A model generated the notes under the pieces. The model had not been told where the DNA came from and made no database searches. It saw only the letters and a program-made list of their open reading frames with translations. A stretch of DNA of 39,906 nucleotides. It comes from a virus (taxonomy: Duplodnaviria > Heunggongvirae > Uroviricota > Caudoviricetes). Within the stretch, counting starts at the first letter, position 1, and every line of letters begins with the position of its first letter. Below, in pieces: positions 1 through 9,194 of this stretch. Position numbers and translations under genes: made by a program. Where the stretch lies: IMG/VR virus record IMGVR_UViG_2737471844_000008, positions 1 through 39,906 of that record; one strand, 5' to 3'.

Positions 1-1173
1 TCAGGCCTTATGGTGGAAATAATCACTCAGGCGGGAAAACATGCCGCCTTCCCCGACAGATTCCAGGGTAACCAGCGGCCAGTGCGCCACCTGTTTATCA
101 CGGTCGTAAAGTTCAATTTCCCCTACCCGCTGATGGGCGCTAATTGGCGCGGTGAGCTCTTTACCATCAAGGGTATATTTGGCTTTGATATGTGGAATTT
201 CGGCTTTCGGTAGCACCATCCAGAACTCTTGTTCCGTTCCCAGGTCGATATTTTCTTTATCGCCATACCAGATGCGTTCCGTTCCGACCTTTTTCCCACG
301 GAGCAAAATTTGCACCGTAGTAAAGTTTTGTTGCCCCCAACGCAGTAATTTTCTTGCCTCTTCCTCACGACCTTTTGCACTGTCAGCCCCCATTACCACT
401 GCAATGAGACGACGCTGCCCATCTACAGCCGAAGCAATGAGATTAAACCCGGCACCAGAAGTATGACCCGTTTTCAGGCCGTCAACATTCATGGTTTTAT
501 CCCACAACAACCCGTTACGGTTTTGCTGGGTGATACCGTTCCAGGTGAGACTTTTCTCACTGTACATATGATAAAACTCGGGCTCGCCGTGGATGATAGC
601 GCGAGAAAGCACAGCTAAATCATAAGCCGAGCTATGCTGGCCAGGTGCATCCAGACCATGCACTGTTTCAAAATGCGTATCCTTGAGATGCAGCTTCTCG
701 GCATAGTTGTTCATCATTTCAACAAACTGCCGTTGCCCACCGGCAATATAGTCAGCCAGAGCAACACAAGCGTCATTTCCGGAATCCACAATTAAACCAC
801 GGCTTAAATCACGTACCGATACGCGATCGCCCTCTTTCAAAAACATCAGTGAAGAACCGACAAACACCGGATTATCTTTCGCCCACGCATCGCGCCCCAC
901 GGTGACAATATCATCTGGCGTAATGCGATGGCTATCGATAGCGCGATCCACGACATAACCCGTCATCAGCTTTGTCAGGCTGGCGGGATTGCGCTGTTGA
1001 TGCTCATTACCCGCGGTGAGGATCTGACCGGTGGTGTAATCCATCAGTACCCAGGACCCGGCATGAATCTGTGGAGGCTGAGGTGAAAAAGGAATGTTTT
1101 CCGCCGCAAAACCAGACGATAAGTTAAAAACGAACAAAGAAGCAGCAATAATAAGACGGCGTTTCAACAGCAA
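1..1173 (-). CDS. dacD: D-alanyl-D-alanine carboxypeptidase DacD (PBP6b), host gene
   Basis: 390-aa ORF matches remembered E. coli DacD along its whole length (N-terminal signal peptide MLLKRRLIIAASLFVF, SLTK active-site serine motif, SGN and KTG motifs). Stop codon sits at window positions 1..3. Confidence 0.95.
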   Translation of the reverse strand: MLLKRRLIIAASLFVFNLSSGFAAENIPFSPQPPQIHAGSWVLMDYTTGQILTAGNEHQQRNPASLTKLMTGYVVDRAIDSHRITPDDIVTVGRDAWAKDNPVFVGSSLMFLKEGDRVSVRDLSRGLIVDSGNDACVALADYIAGGQRQFVEMMNNYAEKLHLKDTHFETVHGLDAPGQHSSAYDLAVLSRAIIHGEPEFYHMYSEKSLTWNGITQQNRNGLLWDKTMNVDGLKTGHTSGAGFNLIASAVDGQRRLIAVVMGADSAKGREEEARKLLRWGQQNFTTVQILLRGKKVGTERIWYGDKENIDLGTEQEFWMVLPKAEIPHIKAKYTLDGKELTAPISAHQRVGEIELYDRDKQVAHWPLVTLESVGEGGMFSRLSDYFHHKA

Positions 1174-1961
1174 ACCCTCAGGAGTTTCAAATAGCTGTTC
1201 TTTTTACGGAAATACTTATGAACTGGCTGGAATAAAGTGCAAGAAAATGTGACTACTCTCTCATTTTTATCTGACATGATCTGTTGCCACTCGCTGTCAA
1301 ATTGTTGCGCTAAAGCTGATTAGCACGGTGATATTTGATACTCTGGCAGACAGCAGAAATAACGGATTTAACCTAATGATGAATGACGGTAAGCAACAAT
1401 CTACCTTTTTGTTTCACGATTACGCGCAATACCCATGAGAACCGCCATGAACAAGGGTTTCATGATTTGTGATTTTAGTTTGGTACGCAATTTGGTACAC
1501 AACACTATTTTCACTTCAGCGGGTAGTCATCAAACTCACCATAACGAGCATCGTTGATGATGTATGTGATCACCACAAATATCACATCTGGACTAGTTCC
1601 GTCTTCATGCGCAGGTATCTGTTCACGCCTCCCTTTCTGCAAATCCTAAAGATGAGATTTTGGGGTTTTGGGATATCTTTTATCCTCAGTTCTCTATCCA
1701 TTATGCAAACCAGTAATGAACCATCACCGTGTGATAGTGAGGCATCTGCCACGATAAGCGCAGAGAAATGATGCAGTGGTGGGCGGACTGGATTGATGAA
1801 AAAGTTGAGTGATCCACCTTAGCTATCGAATGACACAAAGCCTTGTAATCCAGTGCAAAGCTTTGTTTGTCTCAGTTTTGTCTCAGCGGTTACAGCAAGT
1901 ATCGATCGATTGAGACTTGGATGATAGACTTCATCCCTTTGATTATTAGCTGATAGAAGAA

Positions 1962-2324
1962 ATGTTAAAGCTATTTGCAAAGTACACCTCGATTGGTGTG
2001 CTGAACACACTTATACATTGGGTGGTTTTTGGTGTATGTATCTATGCCGCGCACACCAATCAGGCTCTTGCAAACTTCGCAGGTTTCGTTGTGGCTGTGA
2101 GCTTTAGCTTCTTCGCGAATGCAAAATTCACATTCAAAGCTTCGACTACAACGATGCGCTACATGTTATATGTAGGATTCATGGGAACACTGAGTGCTAC
2201 TGTTGGATGGGCTGCCGATAAATGTGCACTTCCTCCAATTGTCACTCTTGTCACCTTCTCCGCCATCAGCCTAGTGTGCGGTTTCGTCTATTCAAAGTTC
2301 ATTGTCTTTAGGGATGCGAAATGA
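1962..2324 (+). CDS. gtrA: GtrA, bactoprenol-linked glucose flippase (O-antigen conversion)
   Basis: 120-aa hydrophobic four-helix protein. ATG start; stop overlaps the gtrB start (ATGA), as in phage gtr operons. Confidence 0.9.
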
Positions 2325-3241
2325 AGATATCTCTGGTCGTTCCTGTCTTCAATGAAGAGGAAGCGATACCAATTTTTTATAAAACGGTACGTGAATTCGA
2401 AGAGTTGAAGCCATATGAAGTGGAAATTGTTTTTATAAATGATGGTAGCAAAGACGCTACGGAGTCAATCATTAACGCTCTGTCCGTTTCAGATCCCCTA
2501 GTTGTTCCGCTGTCATTTACACGAAACTTTGGTAAAGAACCAGCATTGTTTGCAGGGTTAGACCATGCAACCGGAGATGCTGTAATTCCAATTGATGTTG
2601 ACCTGCAAGACCCGATTGAGGTTATTCCTCATCTTATTGAAAAGTGGCAGGCAGGTGCTGATATAGTGCTTGCTAAACGTTCAGACCGTTCTACTGATAG
2701 CCGGCTTAAACGTAAATCTGCTGAATTGTTTTATAAGCTGCATAACAAAATAAGCACCCCTAAGATCGAGGAAAACGTAGGTGACTTCCGTCTGATGTCG
2801 CGAGAGGTCGTGGAGAACATCAAACTCATGCCGGAACGCAATCTTTTCATGAAGGGTGTGCTTAGTTGGGTTGGCGGTCGTACAGATGTCGTTGAATATG
2901 CCCGTGCAGAACGCGTTGCAGGAAGAACAAAATTCAACGGATGGAAACTATGGAACTTGGCGCTTGAGGGGATAACGAGCTTTTCAACCTTCCCTCTGCG
3001 CATGTGGACTTACATTGGTCTGTTCGTTGCAGGTGCAGCGTTACTTTACGGGGCATGGATGATTTTTGACACTCTCGTTTTTGGGAATGCTGTTAGAGGG
3101 TACCCATCACTTCTCGTCTCAATTCTATTTTTAGGCGGCATCCAACTTATCGGCATTGGCGTTCTTGGAGAGTACATTGGAAGGATTTACGTCGAGGTTA
3201 AACAAAGACCTAAATATATATTGAAAGGAATTAAAAAATGA
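2321..3241 (+). CDS. gtrB: GtrB, bactoprenol glucosyltransferase (GT2 family)
   Basis: 306-aa ORF with GT2 signatures ([16 protein letters not shown]) and two C-terminal transmembrane segments; high similarity to remembered phage GtrB proteins. Confidence 0.92.
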
Positions 3242-4689
3242 TAAACATTAAAATAAAATTATTAATTTTGTCCATCATTACTTCCGTTATTGTGTATGGT
3301 TATTGCTTATTTAACTTTAGTCTTTCTATAGATGGAGAGTTTTTTGATAATACCATTCACACAATATCACTTGGCAGGTGGGGTCATGCCCTGCTTCATC
3401 AGTTTATATTACCAGAGCCATACACGCCTTTCTTTTCAGTATTATTATCTTTAGTTATTATTGCCATTGCCGCATGGATGGCATCTATTTTTATAACAGA
3501 AAATACTCACGAGAGATTGGTTGTTATATTTGGTTTTTTTGCCACGCCGCAACTTGCTTATCAATTGCAGTTTACTAACCAGGCAGACACCACAGCTATT
3601 GGTATTCTGTTGGTTGTTATATCCGCGATAACATCATTTAAAGCGATGGATGGTGACAAATCATTACTTAATGCAACCATATCTATTGTATGTCTTTGCT
3701 GTGCTATATCAATATACCAGTCATTTCTTGTTGTAGCGTTTAGTGTATATGTTGGATTCTTTATCCTGAGAACAAGAAATAAAGAAAACAATAAATATAA
3801 AACATCAATAATTAAATTCTCGTTATATAGCACAGTAATATTCATACTTTCACTTGCATTGTATTTTATGTTTTTCAAAATAATATTAATTTCGTATGGA
3901 GTTGATGATAAGACTGCGGAATATTCAAGATCACAAATGGCGTGGGGTTACAGACAAAATAGTTATATAATTAATTATCTGTATAACTACACAAAAAACT
4001 TTTTGCTTGGAGATACGTTTTTTGGGTTTAGGACGTATATTGTTGGAGTGATTGCTGTAGTGGTGGTTTTTTTTAACTTAGTATTCAAACGAAACCTAAA
4101 TAATGCAACGTCATGTTTAATGTCACTTGCTTTGGTGTTATCTCCTTTAGTTCTTGTTTTTTATTTCGGCAATAACCAGATGCCACGCACTTACATTTCA
4201 ATGAGCTTTGTAGTGGCATTTTCAGTTCTGATTATATTCAGAGGCTTGAGTTTAAAGAAAGAGTTTATTATTATCCCGGTCTTCATGTGCCTTTACTCTA
4301 CTTATGCAGCATCGGCATTATTTTATTCTGATGATATTGCAAGATCTAGAGATGAGTTTATATCACGAAAGATAGTTTCTGATGCGCAGTCATTAATTAA
4401 GCATGGTGAGTCTAGTATTATAACACTTTACTTTCATGGACATATAAATAATGAAAACAGATGGAAGTTACGAAACAGTGACACATTTGGAGTGTCTTTC
4501 TTTTCTTGGGATAATGGTGACCCTAGAAGAATATGTGCATATATTTCATATTACTCACTAGCAAAAGTTAGGTGTGAAAAGATATCATCTGGATATGACG
4601 CCAACATAGCAATGAAATTGCCGCCATACCCTTACATAGGATATATAAAAAACGAAAACGGAAAACTAATAATCAATCTTGGTGGGTAA
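3238..4689 (+). CDS. GtrC-like serotype-specific O-antigen glucosyltransferase (polytopic membrane protein)
   Basis: 483-aa highly hydrophobic ORF overlapping the gtrB stop. Markedly AT-rich compared with its neighbours. Third-gene position of a gtr cluster. Confidence 0.75.
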
Positions 4690-4691
4690 AA

Positions 4692-6725
4692 TTACATAGT
4701 TGTACCATCAGCGTATTTCCAAGCTTGAGCCAGTTGATCAAAAAAAACTGGCTTTTTAGTGTCTATGTTATAGATACTGTGACCGTACCCAAGAAGGTTC
4801 TTATTTATAGCGTTTATCTGTGAGGACGTTGCAGCAGTTGGAATGCCAGACCATGCAACAGTAATTAATATCCAGTTGCTTCCAGTCCAGCGGATGTATG
4901 TTCCTGTATCTGTCTGATAAAAAATATGACCAACAGGAACACCAACTGGCCTGGCAGAAGAAAGCCCAACAACCTGGAAGCCTCTGTCGTCAATCCAAAT
5001 TCCAGCCCCTGCGTTGGTGATGAACCTTCCAAATGCCACGTCATAGTAACTGAAACCAGCAATCGCAGACGTAGTGAAGCCAGATTTCCAGGCGGCAGAG
5101 TTATCAATTGATCTAACTCGAATTTCGCGTCTTGTTGCTTCCGTTGCACTCGATGGTGACGCGTTAGATACAGTGTGAATGGAAACGATATCAACCAGCG
5201 TGCTTACAGGTTCTTCACCACGATAGATGTACTGGAAGCCATCATAGTGGGCACTCTGAGAGTCAATGAATGTCGCCCGCACACGATCTGGTCGACCATA
5301 GTAAACAGATAGCGCATTGGCTGATGCGTATGCTTCATTATAATAGCGCGAACTCTTATCCTGAATTCTCAGAACGTTTTTGTAATCCACGCCAACAGCA
5401 ATGCCAGCGGTAGTGGTGGTGAACCTGAACTCGTTATCCGAAAGAATCAGATCTCCCATTTGCCACGTTGGACTATTAATGTCGTCCTCCGCTCCTTGTG
5501 CACCAATCAAAATTCCCGTTGCGAATGTGCGGCAGCGGTTATCACTGACTTTGAATACATCTGATTTCTGGTCGTGTCTGTGCGTGAATAGAGCAAAACC
5601 ATAACCGCCAACTAGGTCATTGTTGTGCAGGTTAACGCGGTGTGTGCCAATGAATTTAAACGCGCGTTCAAACGTTGTTTCTGGTGTTTCAGTATTGTAA
5701 TTGCGCATCACAACACTGTTGTTTTGTACGAATGCGGCGCGGCTGGTTCCTGTTCCATCGGCAAAACTTGATGCGTAGACCGCATGGCGATCAAGCGGTG
5801 CGCCGGCTACACCAAAAATACAGTTGTCGACAGAGATAATCTCACAATCGATAGGGACAGTACCATAGCCATAAACACCTGCGCTCCAGTCCTGTGAAGC
5901 GAGTTGCTGGAATACGTTGGAGTAACGAACGCCATAGCACAAGTGAATCTGTGCAGTCACAGTGTTAACACCAGCACTGATGTTGCGCATTTCTGATCCT
6001 TCATAATGCGCATAAACGTTGTTCACAGTAATGCCAACTACAGCACGCCCAACACCACGAACTTTTCCGCCGTCAATTTTTACTTTAGTGGTGACGCTTT
6101 CGACGCCTGTTCCGTCAAACGTCAGGATCTGGTAGTAGGTGTTTACGTCTGTAGGCGTGAAGTTAACCCAACCGTCAGCCGTAGATTTGATTGTAATGTC
6201 TCTACCATTTAACGATCTGCGAATTGGTGTGTTTATATTCTGTACGTTATCAATGAGAACATCAGCACTGTTCTCAAGAGCGGTATCAATAGCCTGTTCA
6301 AGGCTTCCAGCCTCTGATGTTTTTACAAGACCGCGAACGCCTCCAATGTATGAAAAACCAATAGAAGATGAAAGCCTTCCCTCCAGCTGATCAGGATCAT
6401 ACTTCAGCACATTAGGAAAATAGAACTGCTTCGCCCCATACGCATCGTACACAGCCATAGAATGACCTTGCACAGTTACGAACTTGGCAATCTGTCCGTT
6501 ATATACCGGGTAACCAGCAGCGTTAATGATGATTGGTTGCGAAACAGGAACGTGAGCGCCATCTTCGTTCTCCACATAAACCTGAATCTGGTTTTCAGGA
6601 TTTACAGGGTCAGTGTCAATTTTACCGATATAAATTTTGCCATTGGCTACAGCTTTAAAAGAACGAGCCATAGTGAAAAGTTGCGAAGGCATGCTTACCA
6701 CAACATTTGCGGTGATATCTGACAT
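4692..6725 (-). CDS. Tailspike protein: P22 gp9-type head-binding domain fused to a divergent receptor-binding domain
   Basis: From [13 protein letters not shown] the first ~110 aa closely match the P22/HK620 tailspike head-binding domain; the rest is divergent. The ORF-track start at 6773 is a 16-aa upstream extension; an ATG at 6723..6725 is preceded by a GGAG Shine-Dalgarno. Confidence 0.9.
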
Positions 6726-6846
6726 TTCATTGCTCCAGACGAATGATATGATGCAACCATGATGTGATTGCATACCGAAATGGTACTATTGAGTATTTAT
6801 CCAGTAGGTTACGATGCCATTCCACCCAACTGGTGAGGCATCAAGG

Positions 6847-7107
6847 ATGTACAGCAAATACGACGAGGCGCAGTTTCACTTGAGACTTCCGCATGAACTC
6901 CACGCGAAAATTAAACAGCGCGCGAAGATGAATAACAGGTCGCTGAACTCAGAGATAATTGCAGCGATTGAAGAATCATTGGCTAAACAAAGCTCTGCAT
7001 CAGTTTACATTGACGATGCAGAGCGTATGGCAGAACAACAATCTGATATTGTTAAGAAAATTGTCTTTGATACGCTCAAGGAGCTATATAAAAAAGACAG
7101 CAGCTAA
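6847..7107 (+). CDS. mnt: Mnt-like ribbon-helix-helix repressor (immI-type), orphan
   Basis: C-terminal segment NDAERMAEQQSDIVKKIVFDTLKELYKK closely matches P22 Mnt; N-terminal RHH motif (FHLRLPHELHAKIKQRA...NGRSLNSEI). Start taken at the internal ATG (MYSKYDE). Confidence 0.8.
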   Translation: MYSKYDEAQFHLRLPHELHAKIKQRAKMNNRSLNSEIIAAIEESLAKQSSASVYIDDAERMAEQQSDIVKKIVFDTLKELYKKDSS

Positions 7108-7127
7108 CCATCAGTTACGGAGGATTT

Positions 7128-7205
7128 ATGCAAAGAGATATGCTGAATATTGCGTTCTACATATTTGGTTTTTGCACGTTCCTGGTGTTTGCGAAGCTAT
7201 TCTGA
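7128..7205 (+). CDS. Hypothetical 25-aa hydrophobic peptide downstream of mnt
   Basis: ATG at 7128 with a GGAGG Shine-Dalgarno 4 nt upstream; encodes MQRDMLNIAFYIFGFCTFLVFAKLF; its 3' end overlaps the convergent gp16-like gene. No homology evidence. Confidence 0.3.
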   Translation: MQRDMLNIAFYIFGFCTFLVFAKLF

Positions 7206-9194
7206 CAACGCATCAGACTTGGCACCCTGAGTCAGGGCGTTAATGGCCTTTTGCGCCTGCTGCATGGCTTTCTCAAACGCTGTTGATCCGCGTTTGGTGT
7301 TTGCCATTCGGAGCATTGCATTTCTGAATGGCTCGCTCTCATAGGCGCGAGTAAGAAGTCCGTAGCTTACTGCTGCGCCAGTTGTTGCAGGGTTCATTGC
7401 CGCCCCATATCCGATAATGAACGGGATGGTTTGCTGCCCTGTGGGGGTTGTTACTGCCGCTTTTGCAGCCTGCTGCGTGGATTGAAGGTAGTTTTTCAAT
7501 CCTTTCAGATAAGCAGCATCCTGCCCCTTAAATGTTATTCCAGTCTGGTTTTGCAGGATGTTAAGCTGCCGAAGGAACTGGTCAGGGGATCCGCCAGATT
7601 TCTCCATCGCCTTTCCAATGATGCCATTGCGCATTTGCGCCCTGCCAACACGACCAACTGAGTTATACAGCGTCTTAATTTCCGATTTGTTCTTGCTGAA
7701 TAGCATGTTGTTGACAACTTCCGGCGTCAGGTCTCCTTTCATGAGAACATTCTTCAGCCTGGTATTCTTTAGTTTCGCCGCTTCGTCAGCGTAGACGGCA
7801 TTGGCCTGCTGATATTTACGGAGAGTATCGTTGCCAAGATTCTGACCAATGGCACCATTGATATCGTCGGTCATCGCCTTGTAAACACGTTGAATGGCGG
7901 CATCAGAACGGTTTGGTAACACTGTCCGCTCCCCCTTCACGTCCATTCTGAACTGGCTGCGCAGATCGCTTAATTGCTTCAAATCCAGATTAACCGGACC
8001 ATCAGGGCCAGCATTGCGAACAAGCTCATCACGATATGACTGAAGTTTTGAAATTGTCTCGTTATCAGCTACCTTACCAAGCTTCTGCAGATTAGATATT
8101 TCTGTATCAATCTGCTGAATTGCTCGCGCAGGCTGAATGTTTACTCCAGCCATAGCATTCTGAACCTGCTCCAGTCGATTACCGGCGGCACGACGAATTC
8201 CTGATGTTTTCGCTTTAAGGCTGTCAATAACAACCGCTGGATCATACTCCCCGAATTTATCGGCAAATCTCTGCACCAACTGACTTCTCGCTTCCTGTTG
8301 CGTTGCTCTCATTCCGCTTGTGCCAGCCAGAGGGATATTTTCTGCTGTAGTCTGAGCCATTTTTCCGACGCGGGAAGTAGGTTGTAACAGGTCTGTGGTG
8401 TGCAGAGGCACTCCTTCACGCTCTGCAAATCTGATAGCCTGCTGCGCTTCTGGCGCAATAGCACCACGAACGCCACGATAAGCAGCGCCTAATCCACGTC
8501 CGGCAGCGTTAATAGCGCCTCCAGCCAGAACGCCAACGCCTAAATCGGTAGCGAGTTCTTCCGCATCATCTTTCGCACTATTTGCAGCAAGTGACCCTAC
8601 TGCGTTTTCTGCGAGAAGGCGAGTTGCCCCCTGAGCAATTCGACCAGCAAGTGTTGGTGCCTGTGCCGCCGCTCTCTCAATGCCAGCAGGAGTGAGGTAA
8701 GGCAATGCTTCAGCAAATACCCTTCCCTCTGTAGTTTGTGGAGTCAGCGCACCTTGCTGAAGTCCAAAGTCATGCTCTAATCCCTGCGTTGTTACTCGTG
8801 GTGCTGGTTGATATGTACCATCGCCAATGCCGAGTTTACCGCCAGCCCAAGCCGCCGCGCTTGTTACAGCATCGGCAACTGATGCAGGTATGTTTGCCAC
8901 GTTCACGCCAGCCTGCACCAGTCCACGACCAGTCTCTTTTACTGCTTCACCAAGATCAGACATAAATCCACTTTGCTGTGGTTGTTGCTGTGCTACTGGT
9001 TGTTGTGTCTCCACTGGCTGCACAGATGGCAATGGATAGGCAGCATAGAAAGCTTGCTTAGCCTGCTCTGCATTTTCTCCGGCTTGCGGGACCACAACTT
9101 CATTGAAGTATTGCTCCTGAGCCTGCGCTTTTTGTTCTGGTGCTAACGCCTGATACTGTGGAGAGGCGATAACATCTTTCCATGCTTTAGCCAT
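7197..9194 (-). CDS. Ejection (DNA-transfer) protein, P22 gp16 / Sf6 gp13-like
   Basis: 665-aa ORF in the gp16 position of the P22 gene order; Gln/Ala-rich N-terminus typical of ejection proteins. TAATG overlap with the upstream gp20-like gene. Confidence 0.8.
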   Translation of the reverse strand: MAKAWKDVIASPQYQALAPEQKAQAQEQYFNEVVVPQAGENAEQAKQAFYAAYPLPSVQPVETQQPVAQQQPQQSGFMSDLGEAVKETGRGLVQAGVNVANIPASVADAVTSAAAWAGGKLGIGDGTYQPAPRVTTQGLEHDFGLQQGALTPQTTEGRVFAEALPYLTPAGIERAAAQAPTLAGRIAQGATRLLAENAVGSLAANSAKDDAEELATDLGVGVLAGGAINAAGRGLGAAYRGVRGAIAPEAQQAIRFAEREGVPLHTTDLLQPTSRVGKMAQTTAENIPLAGTSGMRATQQEARSQLVQRFADKFGEYDPAVVIDSLKAKTSGIRRAAGNRLEQVQNAMAGVNIQPARAIQQIDTEISNLQKLGKVADNETISKLQSYRDELVRNAGPDGPVNLDLKQLSDLRSQFRMDVKGERTVLPNRSDAAIQRVYKAMTDDINGAIGQNLGNDTLRKYQQANAVYADEAAKLKNTRLKNVLMKGDLTPEVVNNMLFSKNKSEIKTLYNSVGRVGRAQMRNGIIGKAMEKSGGSPDQFLRQLNILQNQTGITFKGQDAAYLKGLKNYLQSTQQAAKAAVTTPTGQQTIPFIIGYGAAMNPATTGAAVSYGLLTRAYESEPFRNAMLRMANTKRGSTAFEKAMQQAQKAINALTQGAKSDALSE

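Follow-up and report, generated by a model that had tools for sequence, protein, structure and literature searches.

A conserved, unannotated hydrophobic micropeptide gene at the 3′ end of gene 16 in P22-like phages and its possible role in superinfection exclusion

Introduction

P22-like phages carry a variable accessory block, the 'ant moron', between genes 16 and 9, of which ten types were distinguished in sixteen genomes (Villafane et al., 2008; PMC2629481). The morons of ST64T, ST104 and Para1 consist only of the repressor gene mnt and one gene of unknown function (PMC2629481), and phage L likewise carries mnt without arc or ant, for which its authors raised the possibility that L mnt is a remnant (PMC8022706). 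Here we examine the corresponding locus in IMG/VR record IMGVR_UViG_2737471844_000008, a stretch of 39,906 nucleotides (hereafter 'the window', to which coordinates refer unless another sequence is named) that is a P22-like (Lederbergvirus) Escherichia coli prophage in a map orientation opposite to that of P22. Between its gene 16 homologue and its tailspike gene lie an mnt gene and, immediately downstream, an open reading frame (ORF) of 25 codons that is the main subject of this report.

Two described exclusion systems bear on this locus. The P22 protein SieA blocks injection and leaves phage growth otherwise unaffected, and in P22 mutants that escape SieA two gp16 positions, G532 and P546, are changed (Leavitt et al., 2024; PMC10883804). 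STnc6030 of the Salmonella prophage BTP1 is a 786-nucleotide annotated transcript, abundant in BTP1 lysogens (a mean of 90 transcripts per million), that is antisense to the tailspike gene's 5′ end and also to gene 16 at its 3′ end (Owen et al., 2020; PMC7067206). The supplementary table of that study places it at positions 403942–404727 of D23580, with gene 16 at 402294–404261, and the transcript was classed as non-coding on the grounds that it holds no ORF above 60 amino acids. Expression of STnc6030 from a plasmid confers total immunity to BTP1, with P22 plating normally on the same cells, and the four escape single-nucleotide polymorphisms (SNPs) recovered fall within 36 base pairs and are all non-synonymous in the gene 16 homologue. 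Over-expression of STnc6030 left the titre of the induced BTP1 prophage unchanged, a paradox that the authors themselves note (PMC7067206). A 2025 review still treats STnc6030 as an antisense RNA (PMC12197685), and neither BTP1 nor STnc6030 is mentioned in the SieA paper (PMC10883804).

Results

The small ORF belongs to a conserved, unannotated gene family

The small ORF occupies positions 7128 to 7205 of the plus strand and encodes a predicted single-pass hydrophobic peptide of 25 residues (MQRDMLNIAFYIFGFCTFLVFAKLF) with one hydrophobic stretch and a grand average of hydropathy (GRAVY) of 1.20. Its ATG is preceded by the Shine-Dalgarno sequence GGAGG (7119–7123, plus strand), which falls inside the 20-nucleotide gap between the mnt stop codon and the ATG, and its 3′ end overlaps the stop end of the convergent gene 16 by 9 nucleotides. 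The 25-codon ORF with its GGAGG, the strong hydrophobicity of the product and the overlap with the 3′ end of gene 16 had been pointed out in a preliminary description of the window, and each is as it was described there. Family members (GRAVY 1.2 to 1.5) follow a common plan, with a short polar head of the form M-x-R-D, 16 to 18 hydrophobic residues, and a basic or hydrophobic tail.

Eighty viral contigs fetched with the gp16 C-terminus, together with phage records, gave 85 loci with an Sf6-type gene 16 end. The ORF is intact in every one of these, with identical start and stop, and the set yields 28 peptide variants and 36 nucleotide variants. When all 223 collected loci are considered, 119 carry a member of the family, in a form of either 25 or 23 amino acids, and the frame is intact in 119 of 119. 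A tblastn search of the phage collection with the 25-residue form recovered only a close set of records; the diverged 23-residue homologue at the same place in ST64T (MNRDLLNFAFLIFGIVVGRLLFA) was found by reading the sequence. Other 23-residue members are present in phages L, ST104, g341c, BTP1, MG40, HF4s and Klebsiella phiKp_30, and in prophages of Kluyvera, Citrobacter, Pseudescherichia, Escherichia species and Candidatus Erwinia dacicola. The family as a whole therefore spans phages of Escherichia, Shigella, Salmonella and Klebsiella as well as prophages of Kluyvera, Citrobacter and Erwinia. The window peptide is 30 to 48% identical to the 23-residue forms; M1 and N7 never vary, R3, D4, F10, I12 and G14 are nearly invariant, and the sequence GGAGG(A/G)TTT-ATG or a close variant is kept throughout.

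The pattern of substitution resembles that of a protein-coding gene. Outside the gene 16 overlap there are 47 distinct variant alleles, of which 19 are synonymous compared to an expectation of 12.6 (P = 0.002) and none gains a stop codon or loses the start codon (P = 0.009; 0.00025 jointly with the synonymous excess). Within the 23-residue clade the mean proportion of synonymous differences (pS) is 0.73, at which synonymous sites are near saturation, and the mean proportion of non-synonymous differences (pN) is 0.18; the ORFs of HF4s and Pseudescherichia, for example, are separated by 13 synonymous and 2 non-synonymous differences. These data indicate that the ORF is under purifying selection as a protein, because a cis-antisense RNA puts no constraint on intergenic codons. 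A role as a leader peptide or regulatory upstream ORF was rejected in view of the conservation of the amino-acid sequence itself. The preliminary description had left open whether the peptide is expressed. Selection at the codon level and an abundant BTP1 transcript that covers the homologous ORF now argue for expression.

A view of the ORF as an appendage of mnt does not survive the finding that it is present with or without mnt. Sf6 has no mnt and keeps the ORF (MQRDLLNIAFYIVGFCTFLVFAKLF), and Sf101, which carries a window-type mnt beside a different type of gene 16, has no ORF. The sequences upstream fall into three unrelated classes (the 3′ end of mnt, a lipoprotein-like gene, or an Sf6-type spacer), and similarity is lost at the ATG of the ORF or just ahead of it, as for a module boundary. 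Judged by these comparisons, the small ORF is a genuine gene family, and it forms a module of its own that goes with the 3′ end of gene 16. None of the records examined annotates it, and the peptide has no family match in Pfam, PHROGs, NCBIfam or PADLOC. Furthermore, an exact look-up of seven common peptide variants found none of them among approximately 15 billion predicted proteins, and an Rfam scan of positions 6400–7600 at E values up to 1 gave no match.

Lipoprotein-like ORFs, recognizable by a signal peptide plus a cysteine, lie directly upstream of the small ORF in other moron types and may be further exclusion factors. Examples are a 171-residue ORF (MKKSLLIIPLLLAGC...) in Gally and orf62 in ST64T and L; such ORFs map to 1441–1860 (minus strand) and 1965–2480 (plus strand) of locus L004 and to about 2450–2750 (minus strand) of locus L091.

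A homologue of the small ORF lies within the STnc6030 exclusion locus of BTP1

The cloned STnc6030 fragment corresponds to positions 2095–2880 of our BTP1 locus (L092), and both cloning primers map to its ends. Inside the fragment, at L092 positions 2501–2572, is a 23-codon ORF (MERDLLNFVFLIFGLVVGKLLFA) with GGAGG, and this is the only ORF of the fragment that has both an ATG and a GGAGG. STnc6030 comes from the locus that corresponds to that of the window, as a plus-sense transcript of the region between gene 16 and the tailspike gene that enters the 3′ end of gene 16. In the window, mnt and the small ORF are encoded on the strand opposed to the late operon and extend into gene 16, and a comparable transcript may be made there. 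There are also differences, which include the published status of STnc6030 as non-coding, the absence from BTP1 of any moron or mnt between gene 16 and the tailspike gene, and the promoter. The STnc6030 promoter (−35 TTGAAT, −10 TTCAAT) is located approximately 310 nucleotides inside the tailspike gene and is identical in ST64T, whereas in the window the −10 reads TTCAGC and the −35 has diverged, and Sf6 likewise has not conserved it.

The BTP1 escape segment of gp16 aligns with a SieA-escape site of P22

The BTP1 escape region covers gp16 codons 583–595 (ILGIGTVTNPALV; L092 2744–2781). This segment aligns with residues 540–552 of P22 gp16, which contain P546, the site of the SieA-escape change P546S, and the second SieA-escape site, G532 (G532W), aligns approximately 7 to 8 residues before the BTP1 segment. 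In the window, the same segment is encoded by gp16 codons 593–605 (IIGYGAAMNPATT), at positions 7380–7418 of the minus strand. Residue 598 (codon 7401–7403) is alanine here, and all 107 other loci of the 25-residue type carry threonine (IIGYGAAMNPATT versus IIGYGTAMNPATT). This unique T598A change adjoins the residue that aligns with P22 P546, and it could be either an escape-type variant or a neutral change. None of the collected loci has both the small ORF and a SieA homologue.

The window ORF is probably expressed from the mnt transcript

BTP1 and other phages and prophages without a moron have a perfectly conserved TATAAT approximately 25 nucleotides upstream of the ORF (L092 2466–2500, and the same in L095 and L218–L222). 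This element probably gives the ORF another promoter in such phages, in addition to the mapped STnc6030 start. The TTGCRT that precedes it by only 10 nucleotides is too close to serve as its −35. TATAAT is absent from the window, where the stretch is replaced by a cassette, at roughly 6774–7114, composed of candidate operator, candidate mnt promoter (Pmnt) and mnt. No terminator-like site is found in the 20 nucleotides between the mnt stop codon and the ATG of the ORF; the mnt genes of ST64T and Gally are followed by hairpin and T-run sequences. Because TATAAT has been replaced, no terminator intervenes and the STnc6030 promoter is not conserved, the window ORF is most likely read from a bicistronic mnt-ORF transcript, an arrangement that we favor with some reserve.

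The upstream gene encodes a true Mnt homologue unaccompanied by arc or ant

The mnt gene (6847–7107, plus strand, with its stop codon at 7105–7107) encodes 86 amino acids when translated from the preferred start at ATG 6847; an in-frame ATG upstream at 6814 would yield 97. Residues 7–49 match the Pfam family Arc (PF03869, E = 7.5e-15), corresponding to the ribbon-helix-helix N-terminus, and residues 57–82 match Repressor_Mnt (PF11423, E = 2.1e-13), corresponding to the C-terminal tetramerisation helix. The protein also matches PHROG 795 (E = 1.5e-35) and in tblastn is 49% identical to P22 Mnt across 80 amino acids (E = 1e-25), with a C-terminus (VFDTLKELYKK) close to that of P22 (VFDTLKDLYKK). 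On these matches the 86-residue protein is a true Mnt homologue, in agreement with its first assignment as an Mnt-like ribbon-helix-helix repressor. The absence of arc and ant asserted at the same time is likewise confirmed, since P22 Arc, Ant, SieA and Orf59a, used as tblastn queries, gave no match anywhere in the 39.9-kb window.

The window shares with P22 immI the two-domain Mnt, the direction of mnt and its place on the map between genes 16 and 9, and a dyad directly upstream of a TTGAG-type −35. It differs in having no arc, ant, sar or usable ant promoter (Pant), and in that mnt is followed by the small ORF with no terminator. Close counterparts are the mnt-only morons of ST64T, ST104, Para1 and L, in which mnt also stands alone, divergent from the tailspike gene at a distance of approximately 120 to 150 base pairs, without arc or ant. 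The ST64T/L-type morons are distinguished by a different operator class (AGACCACnGTGGTCT), a terminator after mnt, and the extra lipoprotein-like orf62 ahead of the small ORF. An mnt gene that lacks an antirepressor is therefore nothing out of the ordinary, as mnt-only arrangements next to the tailspike gene had already been described in ST64T, ST104 and L. In our collection mnt is intact in at least 54 loci, and in nearly all loci with both genes it is divergent from the tailspike gene with approximately 120 to 150 base pairs to the tailspike start. The mnt half of the observation is thus ordinary and already known.

No intact immI region with an Mnt of the window class was found, and the ten loci with gaps of 650 to 720 base pairs between mnt and the tailspike gene proved to carry HNH/AP2 endonuclease insertions rather than arc and ant. 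These insertions (in L010, at approximately 1950–2450 in the orientation of mnt, and in L064 and eight further loci like them) leave a stub of the original first codons and provide a new tailspike start, and the site has been taken by two unrelated versions. In JEP4 (L090 3270–5930), an Mnt with the window-class N-terminus is accompanied by KilA-like, Rha-like (antirepressor-type) and second C2-like repressor genes between mnt and gene 16, such that this moron is a secondary immunity region of a different kind. We also observed that Mnt homologues are widely mislabelled as 'partition protein ATPase' in RefSeq phage records (NC_027398, NC_004348, NC_005841 and others) and in the description of PHROG 795.

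Candidate operator and promoters of mnt

Each Mnt class is accompanied by its own dyad, in the same register directly upstream of a (T/G)ATTG or TTGAG-type −35. In P22, the annotated operator dyad AGGTCCACCGTGGACCT is followed by the annotated Pmnt TATTGAGA; Gally and ST64T have the dyad AGACCACnGTGGTCT followed by TATTG; and the window has CATACCGAAATGGTAC followed by TATTGAG. The candidate operator of the window, CATACCGAAATGGTACT (6771–6787), contains the dyad core TACC-N5-GGTA (6773–6785), which occurs once in the window and abuts the Pmnt-like −35. Equivalents are found beside Mnt proteins that share the same N-terminus (MYSKYDEAQFHLRL...) in VSe13 (TACCTAAATGGTA) and JEP4 (TACCGAAACGGTA), whose Mnt C-terminus and operator flanks differ from those of the window while the dyad position is conserved. 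The β-strand residues of the window protein (AQFHLRLP) differ from those of P22 Mnt (PHFNFRMP), and a different operator is predicted for this reason. From these correspondences, window Mnt most likely binds TACC-N5-GGTA at 6773–6785.

The preliminary description had instead proposed an imperfect palindrome, GATGCC...GGCATC, at about 6786–6815 as a possible operator. The repeat exists, with perfect 6-nucleotide arms 18 nucleotides apart, but at 6813–6818 and 6837–6842 rather than at those positions, and a role as operator is unlikely. Gally and ST64T keep it in their leaders with a different loop (JEP4 has GGCATT) alongside a different Mnt β-strand and a different upstream dyad, so it cannot be what sets operator specificity. 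Such a repeat is by itself no more than expected by chance, since 17 inverted repeats of at least 6 nucleotides occur in the 561 nucleotides scanned. It flanks the mnt Shine-Dalgarno sequence GGTGAGG (6831–6837) and overlaps a −10-like TACGAT as well as the nucleotides that separate the Shine-Dalgarno sequence from the ATG. A second inverted repeat, ATGCAACCA/TGATTGCAT (6751–6773), was also rejected as the operator. Similar ATGCAA...TTGCAY repeats are found in Sf6 and 683R2, which have no mnt, and none is found in VSe13 and JEP4, which share the Mnt N-terminus; the repeat is a remnant of the Sf6-type spacer between gene 16 and the tailspike gene that received the mnt cassette. A scan of viral contigs for CATACCNAAANGGTAC gave mostly chance matches, with an Mnt homologue at only 24 of 80 loci. 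Four unrelated viral contigs (L103, L110, L148 and L164) have two copies of CATACCNAAANGGTAC exactly 515 base pairs apart without an Mnt homologue, and these are presumably part of a repeated gene segment.

The promoter of mnt is uncertain, with two candidates predicted from sequence. By positional homology to the annotated P22 Pmnt (TTGAGA-17-TATCAT), a putative plus-strand promoter comprises −35 TTGAGT (6789–6794), a 15-nucleotide spacer and −10 TACGAT (6810–6815); the spacer is 2 nucleotides shorter than in VSe13 and JEP4. The alternative is an extended −10-like TGaTATGAT (6744–6752, plus strand, directed towards mnt) that is specific to the window moron type. CTGACA-17-AATGAT, which overlaps it, is the sole promoter-like site on the plus strand upstream of mnt in the consensus scan, at a frequency not above that in shuffled sequences; the consensus promoter and terminator scans as a whole were no more informative than shuffled sequence. 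At the position of the Pant −10, which is TATATT in P22, the mnt-only types examined are degenerate (TGCATC in Gally, TATATC in ST64T, ATAAAT/TAAATA in the window), and for this reason no promoter is seen in cis for Mnt to repress. The roles that may be left for Mnt are autoregulation and trans-repression of the ant promoters of incoming phages, both of which we infer.

Genes flanking the locus and relatives of the prophage

The location of mnt between a gp16-like gene and the tailspike gene is as the preliminary description had it. The tailspike gene (4692–6725, minus strand, from the ORF list) has its true start at ATG 6725, with GGAG 8 nucleotides upstream, and is separated from mnt by a 121-base-pair spacer; its product has an N-terminal head-binding domain homologous to those of the Sf6, HK620 and BTP1 tailspikes. 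The gene 16 homologue (7197–9194, minus strand) encodes an Sf6-type DNA-ejection protein of 665 amino acids, the C-terminus of which aligns with gp16 of BTP1, ST64T, Sf6 and P22. In P22-like prophages, the region beyond the tailspike gene usually houses O-antigen modification genes and int. Positions 1–4689 of the window hold an ORF for a polytopic membrane protein of 483 amino acids (3238–4689) and two plus-strand ORFs (1962–3241), and an integrase-sized minus-strand ORF at 1–1173 runs past the window start.

Positions 6500–7500 are 96% identical to phage IME10, and positions 6726–7230 are 99.6% identical to the chromosome of E. coli H1. Among 5,426 complete E. coli genomes, the query region is present in part in 420 and as a whole in 141.

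Discussion

A possible miniature counterpart of SieA

Our interpretation is that two accessory ('moron') functions, each read in the direction opposite to the late transcript, have been inserted into the late operon at the junction of gene 16 and the tailspike gene. Mnt, having no target in cis, would bind TACC-N5-GGTA beside its own promoter and thereby autoregulate its own transcript, and could further act in trans to repress the ant promoter of an incoming phage with the same operator. The peptide would be made in the lysogen from the bicistronic mnt-ORF message, insert in the inner membrane as a single helix, and block DNA delivery by superinfecting P22-like phages that carry a cognate gp16, acting via the C-terminal segment of gp16 (residues ~593–605). 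In other words, the peptide may be a miniature SieA-like blocker of DNA injection and the real effector of STnc6030 exclusion, a tentative proposal to which we assign a probability of about 0.45 to 0.5. The fuller statement, that STnc6030 exclusion is carried out by a conserved, SieA-independent inner-membrane peptide of 23 to 25 residues that many P22-like phages of Enterobacterales encode, that recognises the cognate gp16 C-terminus and in the window is placed under a stand-alone Mnt, would belong at the lower end of that range. An injection blocker accounts for selection on the ORF, for the unaffected induced prophage, for specificity towards a gp16 type, and for the position of the escape mutations.

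As with the small ORF, P22 sieA sits immediately 3′ of gene 16 in convergent orientation, within the 16-9 moron, and its product is expressed by the prophage, resides in the inner membrane, and is escaped by mutations in the gp16 segment that aligns with the BTP1 escape region. However, there is no sequence similarity between the two, and SieA is a protein of 162 to 164 residues with three predicted membrane helices compared to one helix in 23 to 25 residues. The window has no tblastn match to P22 SieA, and the peptide falls outside SieA types A to C, which are about 160 to 200 amino acids long with three or four helices. Escape from SieA also requires changes in gp20, and SieA excludes hybrids with Sf6 or L ejection proteins, a specificity broader than that reported for STnc6030 (PMC10883804). 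In size and hydrophobicity the window peptide, at 25 residues and GRAVY 1.20, resembles type I toxins, which are hydrophobic and shorter than 60 amino acids. Small membrane proteins that stop DNA entry by related phages are encoded by morons or early genes elsewhere, as with HK97 gp15 and T4 Imm. These two are unrelated to the peptide in sequence and several times larger, and the overlap with an ejection-protein gene is particular to the small-ORF family.

Alternative explanations

The published interpretation of STnc6030 is that the RNA itself is active (PMC7067206). Extended to the window, a transcript of mnt, the ORF and the 3′ end of gene 16 would pair with the late mRNA of an incoming phage and destabilise it, and the peptide would have some other role. 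STnc6030 is indeed antisense to gene 16, the escape SNPs lie within the complementary region, P22, which has no nucleotide similarity there, is not excluded, and the plus-strand transcript of the window would also run antisense into gene 16. However, one mismatch in approximately 320 nucleotides of perfect complementarity is not expected to abolish antisense control, and over-expression of STnc6030 has no effect on induced BTP1. The main species of approximately 500 nucleotides on Northern blots would, if begun at the mapped transcription start site, end approximately 20 nucleotides past the ORF and short of the SNP region, although this point is ambiguous. Action by the RNA also leaves unexplained both the selection on the ORF at the amino-acid level and the coincidence of the escape sites with the SieA-escape position in P22, and we regard it as rather unlikely. 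A membrane-depolarising, type I toxin-like peptide that serves addiction or abortive infection, and is held in check by the convergent late mRNA or an antisense RNA, would suit the length (23 to 25 amino acids), the strong hydrophobicity (GRAVY 1.2 to 1.5), and the location in a convergent, overlapping transcription unit of a prophage accessory region. Yet the ORF has a strong Shine-Dalgarno sequence that seems to be unobstructed, the BTP1 transcript is plentiful in healthy lysogens and its constitutive expression from a plasmid is tolerated, and no small antitoxin RNA family emerged from the Rfam scan of 6400–7600. Moreover, exclusion specific to BTP1, with normal plating of P22, argues against a general toxic or abortive effect, making a toxin quite improbable.

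Mnt could act in cis on the late operon and modulate the transcription that reaches the tailspike gene, with the small ORF incidental; the P22 ant moron affects late read-through into the tailspike gene, possibly with the participation of Mnt and Arc (PMC2629481), and a −10-like TATCAT faces the tailspike gene at 6750–6745, beside the operator region. We give this possibility little credence, as the −10 of the Pant equivalent is degenerate in every mnt-only type examined, and Sf6, BTP1 and HF4s express their tailspikes without any mnt. It could also be argued that Mnt is a decaying immI remnant, as the authors of the phage L study suggested might be the case (PMC8022706), and that the ORF is a chance frame in a conserved spacer, and the mnt promoter does look weak. 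The intact state of mnt in at least 54 collected loci, its wide distribution in E. coli genomes, and the strong cross-genus coding signature of the ORF make such an absence of function very improbable.

Several observations weigh against the proposal that the peptide is an injection blocker. The BTP1 data were published as those of an antisense RNA (PMC7067206), and both translation of the peptide and its part in exclusion are inferred by us. Expression in the window is likewise deduced from the arrangement of the locus, given that the promoter inside the tailspike gene is not conserved there. The mutual exclusivity of the ORF and sieA depends on four SieA-bearing loci only. Two peptide classes track two classes of gp16 C-terminus, but the adjacency of the genes makes linkage alone a sufficient explanation, and four non-synonymous escape SNPs are only weak evidence when approximately 70 to 75% of SNPs that arise at random are non-synonymous. 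In the VSe13 variant an arginine interrupts the middle of the hydrophobic core (FYIFRFF), an odd feature for a membrane helix. With regard to mnt, the arms of the operator dyad are only 4 base pairs long and are asymmetric at inner positions, and the Pmnt-like promoter has a poor 15-nucleotide spacer and did not come up in the consensus scan.

Implications for P22-like phages

The part of the locus devoted to Mnt matters less, amounting to a target-less repressor that may now serve an adjacent accessory gene as its promoter and regulator cassette. On the evidence of conservation, the small ORF is an authentic gene family that annotation has missed, and its function is testable and potentially important. 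The spacer between gene 16 and the tailspike gene has been regarded as empty (PMC2629481) or non-coding (PMC7067206), and the small ORF family is a concrete case of a gene missed by gene callers. If the proposal is correct, a widespread micropeptide gene would be added to the P22-like phages, including the models Sf6, L, ST64T and BTP1, and a textbook-listed phage antisense RNA would be reassigned to a small-protein mechanism. A block at injection would also resolve the paradox of an exclusion system that does not harm the induced prophage, and the 25-residue peptide would offer a means to study the way in which gp16 forms the DNA-delivery channel.

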